Shown piece by piece: positions 1 through 5,046 of a stretch of DNA of 5,046 bases. The DNA is taken from IMG/VR virus record IMGVR_UViG_3300017764_004042. One strand, given 5' to 3'. The position numbers and the translations under genes are program-made. The stretch's first letter is position 1. Every line of letters starts with the position of its first letter. The DNA comes from a virus. The notes beneath the pieces were generated by a model. The model searched no databases. It worked only from the letters and a program-made list of their open reading frames with translations, and was not told where the DNA came from.

Positions 1-123
1 ATGATGAGGGAGAATTCACAGGCAAACTAGTTACAGCAAACAAAGGGGTTGTCTTAGCACCGTATGAAAGGAGACAATACCAAAGGGTAATTGGAACTTT
101 GAATCAACAGATTGATGCTCTCA
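1..123. repeat. Terminal direct repeat, copy 1 (exact duplicate of 4924..5046); circularisation overlap
   Basis: Compared base by base. atgatgagggagaattcacaggcaaactagttacagc...caacagattgatgctctca occurs at both window ends in the same orientation, with no mismatch seen. Implies a unit length of 4923 bp. Confidence 0.95.
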
Positions 124-185
124 AGGCTGAGAGAGACGCTCTCCGCTCTAATAGGTTCAAGTTTTGGAAAAAGATACCTCAATAG
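1..185 (+). CDS. 3' part of the junction-spanning gene (same gene as 4779..5046): putative ribbon-helix-helix plus coiled-coil DNA-binding protein
   Basis: The frame with codons at 3-5, 6-8 and so on is open from the window start to TAG at 183-185, and is in phase with the ORF that runs off the 3' end. The joined ORF (4779..4923 + 1..185) is 330 nt and encodes 109 aa. The C-terminal part YERRQYQRVIGTLNQQIDALKAERDALRSNRF looks like a coiled coil. Confidence 0.7.
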   Translation, partial: DEGEFTGKLVTANKGVVLAPYERRQYQRVIGTLNQQIDALKAERDALRSNRFKFWKKIPQ

Positions 186-191
186 GGGGTA

Positions 192-596
192 TTAACCAAA
201 TATTGCATCTAATAAAGCCGCCAATCCTGCTCTAGAGACAGGGGTTGAACCCGGTAATGGTAAACCTGTTACAGAATCAATAATTACATCACTTCCAATT
301 TCTCCGTAATCAATTGTTAAACCTGCTTCTTTTGCAGCATCGTATTGATTCTTAAAATCTTGATATATTTCACCGACTTCAGTTAGTCCCGGTGCGGCTA
401 CATATTTTATTCCAAAGTAACTACCGATTAATGAAAAGATAAAAGTCATCGCTGAAACGTCGGAAACTAATGCTACTGCAGGGGTTGCGATTTTGTTTAC
501 TTGATATGCAACTAATGCACCTTCAATTAATTCTCTTTCAGATCGGCCAAAAACAATTTCATGTCTTATGACTTGATCTGGTTTTGGCTTAGGCAT
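192..596 (-). CDS. 134-aa hypothetical protein with a central hydrophobic (membrane) segment; last gene of the minus-strand operon
   Basis: ATG start at 596 is preceded by GAGTGAT (SD-like) 3 nt upstream and lies 8 nt after the stop of the upstream gene. The hydrophobic stretch ATPAVALVSDVSAMTFIFSLIGSYFGIKYVAAPG suggests 1-2 TM helices. No family recognised. Confidence 0.8.
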   Translation of the reverse strand: MPKPKPDQVIRHEIVFGRSERELIEGALVAYQVNKIATPAVALVSDVSAMTFIFSLIGSYFGIKYVAAPGLTEVGEIYQDFKNQYDAAKEAGLTIDYGEIGSDVIIDSVTGLPLPGSTPVSRAGLAALLDAIFG

Positions 597-604
597 AAAA
601 TCAC

Positions 605-1837
605 TCAGAATTTAATAGACCATGCAACTTGATTTATTTTGTTTAATTGGTTGTCTGCTTTTGTAAATGAAGCCGGTAAACTTGAGGCTGTGCTGGTGGA
701 TCTAATACAATTGTAAACTGTACCGTTGTAATGACTTAACCCTAAACAAGCAGCCATTGAAGCGCGTGGGACAGTGCTGACATTAGGTCCAGCGCTACCT
801 GTCATAACAATCGCCATCCAATAAGTTTGACCTTGAGTTATTGAAACTGAACTGGTGAAGGTTGTTTGAGTATACAAATCCGCGCCACCGTTCACATCTA
901 ATGTTACTGAACCTTGTAAAGAATCGGGATAACCCTCTGAATCAGTATCATAAACGCCCATAATTAGAGTATCTTTACTAGTATTTGTTACACCCGTTCT
1001 AATTGTAATTTCAGATAAAGTACCCGTTTTATTTGCTATAAATCTATGATAAACTACATATTCATCTTGAACCGCATTATTCAAAGTGTAGTCCATTAAA
1101 CAATTAATATCCCACGGTTGAAACCTAGAATATGTCCCGTCTAATTGAGCGGTTATGGGTTGGAATGCTAATGTTGTTGATCCCCCACCACTCGCCGCCG
1201 TTGATTGAGTTGTTCCGTCGGGAAATGTCAGGCCACCAGAAGCACTTGATACATCCAAGACAAATGAAGCAGATCCGCCTTTAACTTTCAATTTCTGATT
1301 TTCATCACAAATCAAACTAACTGCCTTTGTTGCTGAAGAAATATTGATTTCTGCATCACCAGAAGAAGCAACTAAAGTAAACGTGTTTGTTTTGTTTGTG
1401 GCTAGTAAACCTGTAGCAGATAAAACACCGGCTACGTTGTATTGGATCTGGCCGTCTGCGCCGCCGGGTGTTGCAGATATTGTCATATCATCGTTAGCGC
1501 CCGCACCATGAGCCATTGAAATGTTATTACCGACTACTAATTTACGTGCTGCTGTTAATGCTGTTGGGACTGTTCCTTGATCGTATGCCAATAAATAATC
1601 CGCATCAGTAGGCGCACCACCCGATCCACCGCTTAGAAACCCATCCCAATCACCACGAACCGCCATCCTAGCAAGTTGAACAAGCACTAATCTTCTCAAT
1701 TCATCTTCATTCTCTGGTTCAATGAATAGTTTTTCTGCTACACCTTGAAACTGAGCATACGATAAATTCTCTAGATCGGTCTCTTTTAGTAATTCATATA
1801 TCCTACTGGACCAATTATTTGTATCTGGTAACGGCAT
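605..1837 (-). CDS. 410-aa putative spike / fibre (receptor-binding) protein: N-terminal anchoring module, Gly linker, beta-rich repeat region, C-terminal beta-sandwich-like domain
   Basis: The ORF track gives 605..1870 with a TTG start. I prefer ATG at 1837 (MPLPDTNNWSSRIY...) for two reasons: it parallels the MPLPNAERKSSRIY start of the 72-aa paralogue, and it has GAGTTGAT 4 nt upstream. A linker SGGSGGAP follows the module. The Ser/Thr/Gly/Ala-rich beta region contains LTFPDGTTQSTA, a motif of the kind seen in tail-fibre and glycoprotein repeats. The C-terminal ~180 aa (YHRFIANKTGTLSEITIRTG...GQTYWMAIVM) has a jelly-roll or lectin-like alternating pattern. Confidence 0.85.
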   Translation of the reverse strand: MPLPDTNNWSSRIYELLKETDLENLSYAQFQGVAEKLFIEPENEDELRRLVLVQLARMAVRGDWDGFLSGGSGGAPTDADYLLAYDQGTVPTALTAARKLVVGNNISMAHGAGANDDMTISATPGGADGQIQYNVAGVLSATGLLATNKTNTFTLVASSGDAEINISSATKAVSLICDENQKLKVKGGSASFVLDVSSASGGLTFPDGTTQSTAASGGGSTTLAFQPITAQLDGTYSRFQPWDINCLMDYTLNNAVQDEYVVYHRFIANKTGTLSEITIRTGVTNTSKDTLIMGVYDTDSEGYPDSLQGSVTLDVNGGADLYTQTTFTSSVSITQGQTYWMAIVMTGSAGPNVSTVPRASMAACLGLSHYNGTVYNCIRSTSTASSLPASFTKADNQLNKINQVAWSIKF

Positions 1838-1848
1838 TTTAATCAACT

Positions 1849-2067
1849 CTATGTCAGGAATCCATCCCAATCACCTTTACAGGCTGTGATTGCGAACTTA
1901 ATTAGTACTAATCTTCGTAACTCATCCTCATTCAACTGCATAACGTCTAACGGTTTGCCGACGTTATCAATCGTGGGATTTTCACCGCTTGCGATCTCTT
2001 CAAGCGTTTTACCTTGCATGATAGGATAAATCCTTGAGGACTTCCTTTCAGCATTAGGTAACGGCAT
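1849..2067 (-). CDS. 72-aa protein, free-standing paralogue of the N-terminal module of the 410-aa spike protein
   Basis: ATG at 2067 with AGTGAT SD-like motif upstream. Residues shared with the spike N-terminus: MPLP, SSRIY, NEDELRRLVL, GDWDGFL. The ORF stops exactly where the spike protein continues into its Gly linker. Confidence 0.8.
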   Translation of the reverse strand: MPLPNAERKSSRIYPIMQGKTLEEIASGENPTIDNVGKPLDVMQLNEDELRRLVLIKFAITACKGDWDGFLT

Positions 2068-2077
2068 TCATATCACT

Positions 2078-2248
2078 TTATAATTTTTTAAGATATTTAC
2101 TAACCATGGCTTCAATAGCAATATAATCTTTGGTACTCATAGCCCCAAACTGTTGTTCGCTAGAACCTAACATCCAAAGTTTCTTCGCTTTAGATAATAT
2201 TCCTTTGTAAGCGTTTTTTCTTTGAGTCTTAGTCATCTTCTTAGCCAT
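2078..2248 (-). CDS. 56-aa highly basic small protein (not in supplied ORF track); possible nucleic-acid-binding or internal virion protein
   Basis: Hand translation: MAKKMTKTQRKNAYKGILSKAKKLWMLGSSEQQFGAMSTKDYIAIEAMVSKYLKKL, with TAA at 2078-2080. ATG at 2248 is preceded by GGTGAT, which directly follows the TAA stop of the 228-aa gene (TAAGGTGATTAAATG). It fills an otherwise unexplained 190-nt gap in a tightly packed operon. Confidence 0.65.
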   Translation of the reverse strand: MAKKMTKTQRKNAYKGILSKAKKLWMLGSSEQQFGAMSTKDYIAIEAMVSKYLKKL

Positions 2249-2257
2249 TTAATCACC

Positions 2258-2944
2258 TTAAGCAGAAGTTATGTATTGTGCTGTGTAGTTTAGATCAACA
2301 CGCATTGAACATGGTTTCATGTAAGGTTGAACGACAATAGGATTTGATGCGGCAATAGCGCCACTCAGATTTCCGTTGCTCATTGTTACTTGACATCCCC
2401 CTGCAACGGATGTAATCAATGCTTGATCGATTGAAGTAAATTGGGCTTGGGTTACAACTTGACCTTGAAGAGTTTCTCCAATTGTGTTAGAAGTCTGCAA
2501 ATCAACAAGTTGGAATGTTCCCGCACCTGCTGCTACACTAGCACCAATAAAGATACGTGGAACGCCTTGATTAGTATAAACTGCTAATGAAGCATTCCTG
2601 CCGCCAGCAACCATAGTGAAAACTCTTAACTGATCTCCAGCCATTAGAGTTACAGGGCGAGCGAGACCGGGAGTTCCACACGCAACACCTTTCACGGCAA
2701 AGGGGACCAGAGATAGAATCAATCCTTTCCTTAAGATGTATGCGTATGAAATGTTAGCGCCTGCTGTAACTAATCCAGAAGTTACAGTTTGGCCTGTTGC
2801 GAAGTCCCCGATATTCTGGGCTGTTACGGTATAAGCGGTATCTGTGGTTAGACTTGCTTCGGTTCCGTCAGTAATTGTTGCATTTAGAGGAATCTTGAAA
2901 CCGCTTGAGCAGTTTAGAACACCTGTTACGTTTTGTGTTGTCAT
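2258..2944 (-). CDS. 228-aa beta-rich protein, candidate major capsid/structural protein
   Basis: ATG at 2944 is preceded by the strongest SD in the genome, GAGGTGATC (plus-strand 2949-2957), which overlaps the upstream stop codon. The sequence is rich in Thr/Ala/Gly/Val/Ser with no long hydrophobic segment and an alternating beta-like pattern. The capsid role is inferred from position, size and expression signal only. Confidence 0.85.
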   Translation of the reverse strand: MTTQNVTGVLNCSSGFKIPLNATITDGTEASLTTDTAYTVTAQNIGDFATGQTVTSGLVTAGANISYAYILRKGLILSLVPFAVKGVACGTPGLARPVTLMAGDQLRVFTMVAGGRNASLAVYTNQGVPRIFIGASVAAGAGTFQLVDLQTSNTIGETLQGQVVTQAQFTSIDQALITSVAGGCQVTMSNGNLSGAIAASNPIVVQPYMKPCSMRVDLNYTAQYITSA

Positions 2945-2955
2945 CTTAGATCACC

Positions 2956-3390
2956 TCAAAGTTTGAAACCTGCCCCTAATGGTTTGAATATGTTGCGATT
3001 TACATTTGCTATAGGTCTGCGAAGTAATTTTCTGCCTAGACGAAAACCGATTCCTATTCCTAAAGACTGCACTGCCATTGCTTGATAGTTGTTCATGAAG
3101 TTGTTTTGAACAATTCCAAATGCTTGATCTGGCGCTGAGACTATATCAGCCAAAGAGATCTGGCCGGCACCTACTTCCATAGTTACCATACCAACACCTG
3201 CGCCACCGAATCCGGTCTTGTAACCTAGATCGGCACCACCTGTTACGAATCCAACGGGAGATGTCCCCATTAATCCTTGGGATAATACATTAGCATAAGC
3301 ATAACTTTCTGCTACATTCAATAGTGAAGTCGCTCGACTTCTGCGTGGGCTTCTTGACTTTTTTCTGCGGGCCATGCTGAGATCGGCCAT
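2956..3390 (-). CDS. 144-aa protein with Arg/Lys-rich N-terminus and Gly-rich hydrophobic segments; candidate genome-binding or membrane-associated structural protein
   Basis: First gene after the 3391-3480 spacer, with no SD. N-terminus MADLSMARRKKSRSPRRSRATS, followed by GFVTGGADLGYKTGFGGAGVGMVTMEVGAG and LGIGIGFRLG. An alternative start at Met6 (ATG at 3375) would be leaderless relative to a TATAAA element at 3399-3404. Confidence 0.8.
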   Translation of the reverse strand: MADLSMARRKKSRSPRRSRATSLLNVAESYAYANVLSQGLMGTSPVGFVTGGADLGYKTGFGGAGVGMVTMEVGAGQISLADIVSAPDQAFGIVQNNFMNNYQAMAVQSLGIGIGFRLGRKLLRRPIANVNRNIFKPLGAGFKL

Positions 3391-3480
3391 ATTTCCGGTT
3401 TATAGTAGTTGACTGTCATTTTCCGGAATTCGGAGCAAATTTAGCTAATTTTTTTCCGGAAAACGGAAACCTGGTTTCCG
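3391..3480 (-). promoter_or_regulatory. Intergenic spacer with clustered TTTCCG / CGGAAA half-sites and two perfect palindromes; candidate operator, promoter of the structural operon, or origin
   Basis: TTTCCG occurs at 3392, 3420, 3453 and 3475. CGGAAA or CGGAAT occurs at 3424, 3457 and 3464. There is a 12-bp palindrome TTTTCCGGAAAA at 3452-3463 and a 17-bp palindrome CGGAAACCTGGTTTCCG at 3464-3480. A TATAAA element (minus strand) lies at 3399-3404. Confidence 0.5.
3460..3480 (-). terminator. Possible terminator of the 100-aa gene: hairpin followed by a T-run on the minus strand
   Basis: Immediately after the TAG stop (3481-3483), the minus strand reads CGGAAACCAGGTTTCCG (8-bp arms) and then TTTT. 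The 1-nt centre means the real stem would be about 6-7 bp. The same sequence could instead be a protein-binding palindrome. Confidence 0.3.
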
Positions 3481-3783
3481 CTATTCGTCTTTAGATACAA
3501 ATAATCCTTTATCGTCTCTTTCGATCACTTTCATAGCAGCCGGTTGTTGATTTTGTTGGCTCATGTTAGCAATTAACTGACCGATTGCCATTTGAATTGG
3601 ATTAATCGGCTCACTTTCACCCATTCCCGGGATTTTTTCAACCACTGATCGTATTGCTAACGCCAGTTTTTCGTCTAATTCAATTAATCCGTCTTCAATT
3701 TTATGTCCTAGATCTATTAATAGTTTGAAAACTACGCCAAAACCTACAATTATTGTTCCTATAATATAGAGGGTCTCCATCAT
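3481..3783 (-). CDS. 100-aa protein with N-terminal transmembrane anchor and a helical, Gln-rich C-terminal part
   Basis: The ORF track gives 3481..3915 with a TTG start. I prefer the ATGATG at 3783/3780 (MMETLYIIGTIIVGFGVVFKLLIDLGHK...), which is preceded by GGGGT. An alternative GTG at 3816 would add a basic n-region, FKNRKGLVGV. The longer extension runs through the G-tract region and the divergent promoter region. Confidence 0.7.
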   Translation of the reverse strand: MMETLYIIGTIIVGFGVVFKLLIDLGHKIEDGLIELDEKLALAIRSVVEKIPGMGESEPINPIQMAIGQLIANMSQQNQQPAAMKVIERDDKGLFVSKDE

Positions 3784-3785
3784 GA

Positions 3786-3834
3786 CCCCAACCAACCCCT
3801 TTCGGTTCTTAAACACCCCCCAAACCCCAATCCC
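3786..3834 (-). other. G-tract cluster on the minus strand (C-tracts on plus); potential G-quadruplex / i-motif element
   Basis: Plus-strand C-runs lie at 3786-3789, 3796-3799, 3816-3821 (six C), 3825-3828 and 3832-3834. The minus strand reads GGGATTGGGGTTTGGGGGGTG...GGGGTTGGTTGGGG. This stands out in an AT-rich genome. Confidence 0.4.
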
Positions 3835-3955
3835 AATCCTTTTAATTGGCTTCGTGTGCGAATATACATATTCACAGCCGGTAGGCTGCCGCTTGAAAGG
3901 AATTGAGAGCGTCAAAAAACTGCGTTTTTTTCCTGCCGGCTGAACGCCGGATGTA

Positions 3956-3962
3956 TTATATA
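3956..3962 (+). promoter_or_regulatory. TATA-box-like / -10-like element for the plus-strand operon
   Basis: TTATATA is centred about 26-29 nt upstream of the ATG at 3988, and that ATG has no SD. This geometry fits an archaeal TATA box driving a leaderless or near-leaderless mRNA. It could also be read as a bacterial -10 (TATTAT/TATATA), but I found no convincing -35. Confidence 0.4.
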
Positions 3963-3987
3963 GCCCCTACGGGCCAAAATCGATATT

Positions 3988-4116
3988 ATGGAGACACGCG
4001 ACATTAACGCAGACGCAGAAACAGTTGAAATAAAACGCCATTTGAAAGCATTAGGGGTAAAAGTATCCGGATCAAGAAAAGAATGTTTAGAAAGATTGCA
4101 GGAATCGATATTATGA
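3988..4116 (+). CDS. 42-aa stand-alone SAP / HeH-motif DNA-binding protein
   Basis: Hand translation: METRDINADAETVEIKRHLKALGVKVSGSRKECLERLQESIL. The segment EIKRHLKALGVKVSGSRKECLERL matches the helix-extended loop-helix SAP pattern (ELRxxLxxRGLxxxGxKxxLixRL) nearly position for position. The stop TGA at 4114-4116 overlaps the next ATG (ATGA). Confidence 0.7.
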   Translation: METRDINADAETVEIKRHLKALGVKVSGSRKECLERLQESIL

Positions 4117-4247
4117 AGAGGGACTATCGGTTTGACGACAAGTGTTGTATTTGCAGAATACATCAAAGATACAAAGATGAAAAAATGAGATTATGGGGCA
4201 TTTGTGAAAAATGTAAAGACATGATTAACGGAGATTGGATATTATGA
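4113..4247 (+). CDS. 44-aa zinc-ribbon micro-protein (CxxC-x16-CxxC)
   Basis: Hand translation: MKRDYRFDDKCCICRIHQRYKDEKMRLWGICEKCKDMINGDWIL. Both the start and the stop overlap neighbouring genes in ATGA fashion. Two CxxC pairs are spaced as in a zinc ribbon. Confidence 0.65.
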   Translation: MKRDYRFDDKCCICRIHQRYKDEKMRLWGICEKCKDMINGDWIL

Positions 4248-4366
4248 ATCTAAGATGTTCTAAGTGTCAGTTAGTGTTTCTAGTCAACACCTTTGAAGAT
4301 GTAAGGATCATACAGGCTATGTCTTGTCCAGAAGGAGCAGGTCATAAATTAAGTGAGGTGGCATAA
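4244..4366 (+). CDS. 40-aa putative zinc-binding micro-protein (CxxC ... C-x5-H)
   Basis: Hand translation: MNLRCSKCQLVFLVNTFEDVRIIQAMSCPEGAGHKLSEVA. The stop TAA overlaps the methyltransferase ATG (TAATG). The 3' end of the gene carries the GAGGTG SD for the methyltransferase. Confidence 0.6.
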   Translation: MNLRCSKCQLVFLVNTFEDVRIIQAMSCPEGAGHKLSEVA

Positions 4367-4782
4367 TGTCAAGTGATGATTACAGGACAGACCAATGGAT
4401 TCTTGATCTCTTTCCTAATTTCTTTGACCCTTGCCCATTCAAAGGCATTCACTTGAAACATAACGGACTGCATATGTCATGGAATTATGCAGATTATGAC
4501 GGCGTGTTTGTTAATCCACCTTATTCAGACCCGAACCCTTGGGTTAAGAAAGCAATACAAGAACAGAAAGATGCAAGAAGAAGAGCATATGACCCCGAAG
4601 ATGAGCAAGAGATTTGGTCGGCTGGTACTATTGTTATGCTTCTAAAGCACGACACATCAACAGAATGGTATAGATTGTTACATGAAGCAGACGCTAAGTT
4701 TTTGCTTGTTAATGGTCGTCTAAAACATCAAACAGGTAAGTCTTGCGCTTTTCCTTCAGTTTTGGCGGTGATGTGCTTATGA
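4366..4782 (+). CDS. Phage-type DNA N6-adenine methyltransferase (Dam-like, PF05869 / TIGR01712-type architecture)
   Basis: Contains the catalytic NPPY motif (DGVFVNPPYSD) followed by PWVKKAIQE. Other family-typical blocks are DQWILDLFPNFFDPCP, TIVMLLKHDTSTEWY, LVNGRLKH and AFPSVLAVM. SD GAGGTG lies 6 nt upstream of the ATG. Confidence 0.92.
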   Translation: MSSDDYRTDQWILDLFPNFFDPCPFKGIHLKHNGLHMSWNYADYDGVFVNPPYSDPNPWVKKAIQEQKDARRRAYDPEDEQEIWSAGTIVMLLKHDTSTEWYRLLHEADAKFLLVNGRLKHQTGKSCAFPSVLAVMCL

Positions 4783-5046
4783 GTAAAATATTACATTCGT
4801 TTACTTTACATAAGCATACATCTGAGTTGCTACGATCTAAATCCAAAAAAGGGTATATGTCTGACAATGTATCAACTGCAATTGAATGGTATTACACTTC
4901 ACCGATCTGGACAAAAGAGCGAGATGATGAGGGAGAATTCACAGGCAAACTAGTTACAGCAAACAAAGGGGTTGTCTTAGCACCGTATGAAAGGAGACAA
5001 TACCAAAGGGTAATTGGAACTTTGAATCAACAGATTGATGCTCTCA
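4779..5046 (+). CDS. 5' part of the junction-spanning gene: putative ribbon-helix-helix (Arc/MetJ/CopG-like) plus coiled-coil DNA-binding protein, 109 aa when circularised
   Basis: ATG at 4779 overlaps the methyltransferase stop (ATGA). The N-terminus MSKILHSFTLHKHTSELLRSKSKKGYMSDNVSTAIEWYY fits a strand, helix, turn (G), helix RHH pattern. The ORF is still open at the window end and continues in phase at 124-185. Confidence 0.75.
   Translation, partial: MSKILHSFTLHKHTSELLRSKSKKGYMSDNVSTAIEWYYTSPIWTKERDDEGEFTGKLVTANKGVVLAPYERRQYQRVIGTLNQQIDAL
4924..5046. repeat. Terminal direct repeat, copy 2 (exact duplicate of 1..123)
   Basis: See copy 1. The repeat falls inside a coding sequence, as expected for an assembly or permutation overlap rather than a functional LTR. 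Confidence 0.95.

Follow-up and report, generated by a model that had tools for sequence, protein, structure and literature searches.

The closest described relatives of the DNA analysed here are the Charybdis elements, reported by Kirchberger & Luque in August 2025 (bioRxiv 10.1101/2025.08.03.668216; PMC12324425) as circles of about 4.6 kb that occur in marine data only, are probably double-stranded DNA and were detected in libraries that exclude single-stranded DNA. They are enriched in the low-density fraction of vesicles and small viruses, and are nearly absent from the fraction of tailed viruses. The defining protein, Gp3, has about 230 residues and a double Greek-key fold, keeps at least 30% identity across the family, and was placed outside the double jelly-roll proteins by structural phylogeny, with no meaningful Foldseek match. 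A structural module of gp1 to gp3, a variable gp5 protrusion protein and gp6 faces an accessory module on the opposite strand that is rich in methyltransferases. No replication gene was found: among 2,975 complete genomes the only exceptions are topoisomerases, in under 100 of them, and integrases, confined to a single clade (clade P). Copies integrated in Poseidoniales number 24, all in one clade, and the elements have no genes in common with known satellites. For their replication the authors weigh helper viruses, host factors, rolling-circle replication and multipartite genomes, and lean towards a helper virus (bioRxiv 10.1101/2025.08.03.668216). Here we analyse the IMG/VR virus record IMGVR_UViG_3300017764_004042, a stretch of 5,046 nucleotides (hereafter the window), which is almost certainly the complete genome of a Charybdis element, that is, a virus-like, probably double-stranded DNA circle associated with Poseidoniales.

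This element encodes no recognisable polymerase, primase, helicase, nicking initiator, packaging ATPase or integrase. That the family has no recognisable replication genes is already published; beyond the preprint, which makes no mention of an intergenic region, an origin, RHH or zinc, our analysis adds the accessory status of the Dam methyltransferase and SAP-domain genes, a set of conserved small proteins and an intergenic region rich in hairpins. We favour a reading, plausible if still somewhat short of probable, in which the replication enzymes are supplied in trans by the host and act on that intergenic region. How Charybdis elements copy and package their DNA matters, since they abound in oceans around the world and possibly represent a novel type of archaeal virus.

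All six frames of the circular sequence were scanned with regular expressions, Walker A being written as [AG]xxxxGK[ST] and in looser forms. The scan gave zero Walker A and zero Walker B (hhhhD[DE]) matches; HUH occurred only in open frames of 12-24 residues, and the two HxxR...Y strings both lay in frames of 60-63 residues antisense to gp3. Pfam, PHROGs and NCBIfam returned two significant matches only, a Dam-type methyltransferase and a SAP domain; no Rep family, recombinase or integrase matched in these three collections, and no HK97-fold capsid protein, terminase or portal in Pfam or PHROGs. PDB sequence profile searches with three proteins (gp2, gp6 and a small RHH-like protein of the accessory module) found no real match, and Foldseek searches of the PDB with AlphaFold models of two (the RHH-like protein and Gp3) gave nothing at E ≤ 0.001. 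Searches of GenBank phages and PLSDB plasmids with blastn and tblastn were without a match, a tRNA/tmRNA scan of the window found none, and scans for sigma-70 promoters and intrinsic terminators did not rise above shuffles. An earlier note on this DNA, made from its letters, had claimed that no replication initiator, packaging ATPase, polymerase or integrase could be recognised and that the methyltransferase was the only recognisable enzyme; motif scan, profiles and models bear out the first claim and the three profile collections the second. The profile searches that it proposed as a check returned no match to Rep, primase, helicase, terminase or integrase families. We agree with its further conclusion, reached in the preprint too, that replication must rely on outside machinery or on a novel protein.

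Genome form, gene order and family membership

Bases 1-123 match 4924-5046 exactly, so that the 5,046-nucleotide window represents a circular unit of 4,923 bp; with this overlap, and with closed circles among the relatives too, the genome is complete, as had been supposed. The circularised sequence carries 12 genes, the same 12 that had been listed before, in two modules that diverge at the 204-nucleotide non-coding stretch 3784-3987 and converge at 185/192. Only about 300 nucleotides are non-coding in total under code 11. The minus-strand structural module holds gp1, gp2, Gp3, two small proteins, the gp5 protrusion protein and gp6, and the plus-strand accessory or regulatory module holds the SAP protein, two small proteins that we call Zn1 and Zn2, Dam and the RHH-like protein. 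The start of the RHH-like gene overlaps the methyltransferase stop codon (ATGA), and its own stop at 183-185 converges with the gp6 stop at 192. The features, in window coordinates, are:

1..123, no strand: terminal overlap, identical to 4924-5046
192..596, minus strand: gp6-like protein, 134 residues; it closes the structural module and is shared by 42 of 44 relatives
605..1837, minus strand: gp5, a putative 'Type II protrusion' protein, 410 residues, ATG at 1837 (TTG at 1870)
1849..2067, minus strand: stand-alone knob paralogue, 72 residues, from BLASTP against the gp5 N-terminus
2078..2248, minus strand: small basic helical protein, 56 residues (MAKKMTKTQRK...), with an open reading frame cluster at the same position in relatives
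2258..2944, minus strand: Gp3, 228 residues, family hallmark and putative capsid protein, from sequence identity and an AlphaFold2 model
2956..3390, minus strand: gp2, 144 residues; the start MARRKK of relatives corresponds to 3375 here
3391..3480, no strand: insertion of about 80 nucleotides between gp1 and gp2 with TTTCCGGAA palindromes, not core
3481..3783, minus strand: gp1, which opens the structural module; 100 residues from MMETLY, transmembrane helix at the N-terminus
3784..3987, no strand: divergent intergenic region, 204 nucleotides, conserved and structured, candidate cis-acting origin or control region
3988..4116, plus strand: SAP-domain protein, 42 residues, Pfam SAP match
4113..4247, plus strand: Zn1, 44 residues from MKRDYRF, putative zinc ribbon by its pattern CCxC...CxxC
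4244..4366, plus strand: Zn2, 40 residues (MNLRCSKCQLVFLVNTFEDVRIIQAMSCPEGAGHKLSEVA), putative zinc-binding protein by its pattern CxxC...C..H
4366..4782, plus strand: Dam-type N6-adenine DNA methyltransferase, 138 residues, NPPY motif, from Pfam, PHROGs and NCBIfam
4779..4923, then 1..185 across the circle junction, plus strand: RHH-like/coiled-coil protein, 109 residues, reconstructed on the circularised sequence

Membership of the family, which the earlier note had overlooked, follows from the agreement of sequence, gene order, size and fold with the Charybdis elements. Gp3 is 91% identical over 228 residues to that of IMGVR_UViG_3300017782_005554 (L012), a genome named in the preprint as its example of the Type II protrusion (bioRxiv 10.1101/2025.08.03.668216), and 89-92% identical to the Gp3 of many IMG/VR contigs that form circles of 4.4-5.0 kb. 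The 4,923-bp circle falls within the range of about 3.7-5.2 kb for Charybdis elements, and the two-module layout is preserved, with orthologues in the same order, among 44 relatives. These 44 are IMG/VR contigs of 4.2-5.9 kb found with Gp3, which together with the window make a comparison set of 45 genomes; a later set of 59 loci includes distant ones as well, L047, L050 and L055 being among the more distant clades. Terminal overlaps of the assembler type occur in 31 of the 44 relatives, whose closed units measure 4.38-5.02 kb. The AlphaFold2 model of Gp3 (pLDDT 88, pTM 0.86) is all-beta, with two domains and 17 strands. None of the 226 relatives of Gp3 in the protein database has a functional name or a Pfam domain.

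The window equals contig Ga0187220_1003223 of JGI metagenome 3300017768. The marine origin of the family is taken from the preprint (bioRxiv 10.1101/2025.08.03.668216). The association with Poseidoniales (Marine Group II) comes from binning, a Gp3 at 82% identity lying on a 5-kb contig binned with a Poseidoniales genome, and from one possibly chimeric junction, on locus L058. There (positions 1-6821; Marine group II euryarchaeote REDSEA-S43_B8 scaffold20) rtcB and alaS run straight into the gp1-gp2-Gp3 block. Homology to the element begins about 31 nucleotides before the gp1 ATG, with the junction immediately ahead of the TATA-like element of gp1, and GC content drops from 50.7% in the host part to 43.9% in the element part; either the element has integrated inside the intergenic region, or the assembly is chimeric here. 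The integrated copies of the preprint are arranged the opposite way to L058. A genome scan for proviruses gave three loci, of which only L058 has host genes; longer contigs with a Gp3 or RHH-like gene were also considered as proviruses and rejected, being concatemers.

Conserved and accessory genes

Over the 45 genomes the core consists of gp1, gp2, Gp3, a protein of 48-56 residues, the 72-residue protein, gp5, gp6, the RHH-like protein (43/45), Zn2 (37/45) and Zn1 (36/45). The Dam gene is present in five of the 45 and the SAP gene in the window only, so neither can be the family's solution to replication, and by this distribution both are accessory. A look at related metagenome contigs for conserved genes had been suggested before; it defines this core, and it removes SAP, which the earlier note had invoked as a recruiter of the replication machinery. 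Among open reading frame families shared by at least two of the 45 genomes and missing from the window, none exceeds 105 residues, methyltransferases (138-194 residues) excepted.

The methyltransferase (PF05869, 1e-13; phrog_111, 7e-16; TIGR01712, 6e-9) occupies a swap site, seen also in L013, L033, L047 and L050, that holds a Dam-type enzyme (five genomes), a C5 enzyme of 191-194 residues (PF00145) or a DPPF-type enzyme of 170-174 residues. Because methyltransferases are interchangeable at this one position, a double-stranded intracellular stage exposed to host restriction seems likely. Many genomes of the set have no methyltransferase in the slot at all. The SAP domain (PF02037, E=5e-6, 26.4 bits against a gathering score of 23.9) has no homologue in the 44 relatives. 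Its gene is flanked by a 17-nucleotide direct repeat AATCGATATTATGRAGA (3978-3994 and 4103-4119; repeat D6) that includes the start-codon context, and it has the look of an inserted cassette, placed between the promoter and Zn1. Three small genes in a row are preceded by a start context like this one, ...ATATTATG.

The three conserved small proteins of the accessory module carry labels, 'RHH' and 'Zn ribbon', that reflect only sequence pattern and predicted helices. Zn1 has no significant profile match; of the 44 relatives 35 have a homologue, and in these no other gene comes between it and the TATA box. Zn2 has homologues of 82-100% identity in 36 of the 44 relatives, is found also in L047 and L050, and reaches zinc-ribbon profiles only weakly (E=0.13-0.14; Zn_ribbon_4, E=0.14). 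For the RHH-like protein the best profile match is DUF5371 at E=0.12, and a profile of its own family matches in 55 of the 59 loci, distant ones included. In its predicted layout an N-terminal strand MSKILHSFTL (ILHSFTL) is followed by two helices that include a turn of the G-x-S type, then by a beta-hairpin, a long helix and the tail NRFKFWKK; in alignment A1 the strand and the tail are invariant, no Tyr is invariant, and Y70 is Phe in several members. The AlphaFold2 monomer model (pLDDT 66) places helices at 5-21, 29-40 and 69-105 and strands at 44-48 and 54-60, and its Foldseek matches all have E>1 and TM<0.25, which at pLDDT 66 is uninformative. The family counts 29 representatives among 1.84 billion proteins, and none of its genuine members, of 38-176 residues, is fused to an enzyme domain; this statement covers the genuine members, and a 2,241-residue match with 12 matched stretches lies outside it. 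A 455-residue match is repetitive and unrelated and looks spurious. Because it has neither an invariant Tyr nor fusions, the RHH-like protein looks like a DNA-binding adaptor or regulator and not a catalytic initiator. The complete L045/L046 clade is without it, with other small zinc-binding proteins in its place. Seen in these genomes (for example L046 4595-5287, minus strand) are an acidic Cys-rich protein of 100 residues and, in a 589-bp gap left by the gene caller, an uncalled basic CxxC...CxxC protein of about 110 residues.

The divergent intergenic region and the copying of the genome

Most relatives conserve the nucleotide sequence of region 3784-3987, and so do clades L047, L050 and L055, whose Gp3 identity is only about 50%. 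Its elements are:

complement of 3807-3814, minus strand: TATA box TTTAAGAA, about 28 nucleotides before the gp1 ATG
3815-3840, plus strand: C-rich tract (G-rich on the minus strand)
3860-3873 (H1), 3875-3888 (H2), 3914-3930 (H3, A-run/T-run) and 3936-3950 (H4, GC-rich), inverted repeats: hairpins
3954-3962, plus strand: invariant TATA box TATTATATA, about 30 nucleotides before the ATG at 3988

Perfect stems of at least 5 bp are formed at the hairpins in 83-95% of loci, against 4-10% of shuffles. The stems vary in step: H1 occurs as GCTAAG/CTTAGC, GGAAGG/CCTTCC, GAAAGG/CCTTTC and GAATA/TATTC, and H4 as TGCGGCA/TGCCGCG, CGGCA/TGCCG, CGCCG/CGGCG, CGGCT/AGCCG and TGCTCG/CGAGCA, and H2 is mostly GCGAT-ATGCA-ATCGC, with an invariant loop. 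In a MAFFT alignment 90.9% of the cells of H1 and H2 are paired, against 34-48% with the partner slid; in six pairs both partners have changed, and covariation reaches a score of 0.352, compared with 0.145 for shuffled alignments (0/500). Folded as single-stranded DNA, the region has a z-score of -2.8 on the plus strand and -1.9 on the minus strand. The TATA boxes, about 28-30 nucleotides before the ATG, we take to be archaeal promoters of leaderless transcripts, a spacing that fits the assignment to an archaeal host. An Rfam match to gut-2 (3788-3856, minus strand) over the G-rich tract scored 21.2 bits against a gathering score of 39.8 (E=0.3, in a search at E ≤ 1) and was treated as chance.

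What the earlier note called repeat-rich non-coding regions, as the target of host machinery, falls into two unlike parts: this region, conserved and structured, and the palindromic stretch 3391-3480, an insertion found in only one other relative. The gap between gp1 and gp2 measures 23-28 nucleotides in 42 relatives and is long only in the window (105 nucleotides to MARR) and in L011 (115 nucleotides). The insertion contains repeats D7, I2, I11 and I21 and shows no nucleotide conservation; the similar insertion of L011 shares CGAATTCCGGAAAA with it. It could be a small mobile or regulatory insert. The TTCCGGAA palindromes in it were considered as iterons or origin-recognition boxes and rejected as an origin of the family, the insertion being common to one relative only.

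The region 3784-3987 is a candidate cis-acting origin. In the reading that we favour, the host replisome would supply all replication enzymes in trans and would be directed to a cis-acting site in these 204 nucleotides, marked by the four covarying hairpins, the C/G-rich tract and the two archaeal-type TATA boxes, and the RHH-like/coiled-coil protein and the two zinc-ribbon-like proteins would serve as non-catalytic origin-binding or regulatory adaptors. We prefer the host replisome as the source of the enzymes because the methyltransferases are interchangeable, because one clade integrates in host chromosomes and because the elements do not co-fractionate with tailed viruses. Several points weigh against this. 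Origin activity is read from conservation and covariation, and the hairpins could have another role, as a packaging signal, as operators or as a structured 5' leader to the structural operon; since TATTATATA is nearly palindromic and could fire leftwards, H1-H3 could sit in a long 5' leader of gp1. Cells with a G-T wobble equal those with an A-C mismatch, at eight each, so that no preference for a strand, or for RNA over DNA, can be read, and the wobble gave no asymmetry that would point to the folding strand. The GC-skew minimum does lie at the intergenic region, where it is confounded by the switch in gene orientation, and it was rejected as an origin marker on that account. Furthermore, no non-structural protein is universal in the family, given the L045/L046 clade without the RHH-like protein, and the preprint itself inclines to a helper virus (bioRxiv 10.1101/2025.08.03.668216).

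That helper-virus option had been left out of the earlier note, whose two alternatives, host machinery or a novel initiator, stand and are shared with the preprint. The element would then be a satellite or hyperparasite with its own attachment and shell parts, for which a Poseidoniales helper virus (for example a magrovirus) would provide the replication proteins, and perhaps capsid parts, acting on the intergenic region. The lack of a replication gene in thousands of genomes and the homology of gp5 variants to tail fibres and spikes speak for such a lifestyle, which the preprint prefers (bioRxiv 10.1101/2025.08.03.668216), and some relatives carry a 73-residue protein with a precomputed match to PF16778 (phage tail assembly chaperone). 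Set against this is zero similarity, in DNA or protein, to GenBank phage records. If a helper virus shared the hairpin its sequence might be found elsewhere in IMG/VR, but the H2 core with six flanking bases (a 21-mer) matches Charybdis contigs only; the bare 15-mer of H2 also occurs in about 45 large contigs, by our estimate near the chance number. The low-density fraction, the near-absence from tailed-virus fractions and the lack of genes in common with known satellites argue in the same direction (bioRxiv 10.1101/2025.08.03.668216), and chromosomal integration in one clade means that at least passive replication by the host is possible. We therefore regard a satellite lifestyle as unlikely, though it deserves to be kept in view.

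We are about equally doubtful of a novel, self-encoded initiator that melts or nicks the hairpins, for which the 109-residue RHH-like protein, alone or with Zn1 and Zn2, is the best candidate. No conserved protein of the accessory module is larger than this one, which is restricted to the element family (29 representatives, no plasmid match), and its N-terminal strand, putatively DNA-reading, and basic tail are strongly conserved; the conserved hairpin loops (ATGCA in H2) resemble, by analogy, the nick-site hairpins of rolling-circle origins. But it has no invariant Tyr, HUH, metal-binding triad or ATPase motif, it is absent from the complete L045/L046 clade, and its low-confidence monomer model matches nothing. 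Concatemer contigs also exist, as rolling-circle copying might leave: contigs of 9-17 kb in L045, L046, L047 and L054 are multimers of one unit of 4.4-4.7 kb, and L045 has Gp3 genes on both strands and hence copies in both orientations. These multimers could be replication intermediates or artefacts of amplification or assembly. They are no proof of rolling-circle replication, because multiple displacement amplification, by which the discovery data set of the preprint was amplified (bioRxiv 10.1101/2025.08.03.668216), itself makes concatemers from small circles.

A related proposal, to which we give similarly little credence, is that the hairpin array together with the RHH-like and zinc-ribbon-like proteins may form a new enzyme-free initiation module, an adaptor that would recruit Orc1/Cdc6-MCM or a primase, or that the RHH-like protein may itself be an initiator of a new kind. 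If true, either would account for replication from a mere 5 kb or so in what may be a new virus realm.

That a Rep gene was missed, on a second segment, in an assembly gap or under an alternative genetic code, is very improbable: a multipartite genome is raised as an option in the preprint only, with no direct support, and against it stand the exact terminal overlap, 31 independent assemblies of 4.4-5.0 kb that all close into circles with this set of genes, head-to-tail concatemers that show the same unit and nothing else, the mere 300 or so nucleotides left non-coding by code 11, with no Walker A and no HUH in frames above 24 residues, and the integrated copies, which argue against segmentation (bioRxiv 10.1101/2025.08.03.668216).

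For host-supplied replication, as for its rivals, the search is now narrower: Dam and SAP are accessory genes, the conserved small proteins are probably non-enzymatic, and one region of 204 nucleotides is the place in which to seek an origin or packaging signal. What remains of interest is the mechanism, and the intergenic hairpin array offers a concrete and testable lead even though the host is uncultured.

Structural module, packaging and known systems

Packaging may proceed without an ATPase if the small genome assembles jointly with gp2, which is rich in Arg, within a vesicle or a small shell of Gp3. In gp2, found in all relatives, the N-terminus (MARRKKSRSPRRSR) is rich in Arg and Lys, the middle is hydrophobic, Gly-rich and variable in length, and the C-terminus LLRRPISNVNRNIFKPLGAGFKL is basic and invariant; the PDB profile search with this protein was empty at E ≤ 10. 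Its basic ends suggest a DNA-condensing protein, possibly associated with membrane or shell. Gp3 is a putative capsid protein; for its model Foldseek found no capsid-protein match in the PDB (E ≤ 0.001). The gp1 protein is present in 43 of the 44 relatives and has no profile match, and open reading frames of 48-56 residues stand at the position of the 56-residue basic protein in 44 genomes, the latter having no Pfam, PHROGs or NCBIfam match.

In gp5 the N-terminal 70 or so residues are conserved across all loci and are followed by a Gly-rich linker, a beta-rich stalk and a variable C-terminal domain; the only Pfam match, to DUF4082, is weak (E=0.25). This architecture, here read from sequence, may correspond to the Type II protrusion of the preprint, which has a three-helix knob, a stalk and a C-terminal lectin-type jelly-roll. 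The 72-residue gene is 44% identical to gp5 residues 1-69 (1631-1837; BLASTP, E=8e-19) and is found in all 44 relatives at 81-97% identity, except for L043 with a fused form of 267 residues at 44%. This knob paralogue may share with gp5, or contest, a docking site on the particle. The gp6 protein has a conserved N-terminus MPKPKPDQVIRHEIV..GRSERE and then a hydrophobic helix; Pfam, PHROGs and NCBIfam gave no match, and the PDB profile search only stretches of transmembrane helix at E>0.7.

Among known systems, Duplodnaviria and known phage satellites are set apart by the lack of an HK97-fold, terminase or portal profile and of any GenBank phage match. Rolling-circle replicons with an HUH Rep (Monodnaviria, rolling-circle plasmids, alphapleolipoviruses) differ from the element, in which HUH frames do not exceed 24 residues and no Rep profile matches, as do integrative elements, the window having no recombinase profile match. 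Small tail-less Varidnaviria with a membrane, such as PM2, resemble the element in a predicted beta-sandwich shell protein, vertex protrusions, small membrane proteins and the low-density fraction, but its genome is half the size of that of PM2, its Gp3 model has no PDB capsid match, double jelly-roll included, and with no Walker A in any frame it has no FtsK/HerA packaging ATPase.

ColE1-type plasmids also have no initiator of their own, and host enzymes replicate them from a structured cis region (RNA II primer, RNase H, Pol I). We know of no archaeal equivalent of this mechanism. The likeness is one of concept only, since these plasmids are bacterial and the window element shows no sign of a primer RNA. 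Aeropyrum pernix bacilliform virus 1 (APBV1, Clavaviridae) is archaeal, with a circular double-stranded DNA genome of about 5.3 kb and no recognisable replication genes; its host is a hyperthermophilic crenarchaeon, and its helical bacilliform virion is built from a small alpha-helical capsid protein. Set side by side by description, APBV1, which the earlier note had cited, appears a fair analogy and not a relative.

Genomes of Pleolipoviridae without a Rep gene measure 7-17 kb, and their core consists of spike and membrane proteins plus an NTPase-like open reading frame. These viruses are like the element in being archaeal, in having small circles and in forming vesicle-like particles that need no packaging ATPase, but they have no Gp3 homologue. 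The preprint cites them as a precedent, their replication being attributed to host factors (bioRxiv 10.1101/2025.08.03.668216). Closest of all are the other Charybdis elements, with which the window shares Gp3, the gp1-gp2-gp3 order, a putative Type II gp5 with its N-terminal knob, gp6 and an opposite accessory module with a methyltransferase; the SAP-domain cassette and the palindrome-bearing insertion of about 80 nucleotides between gp1 and gp2 are particular to the window genome and make no essential difference.

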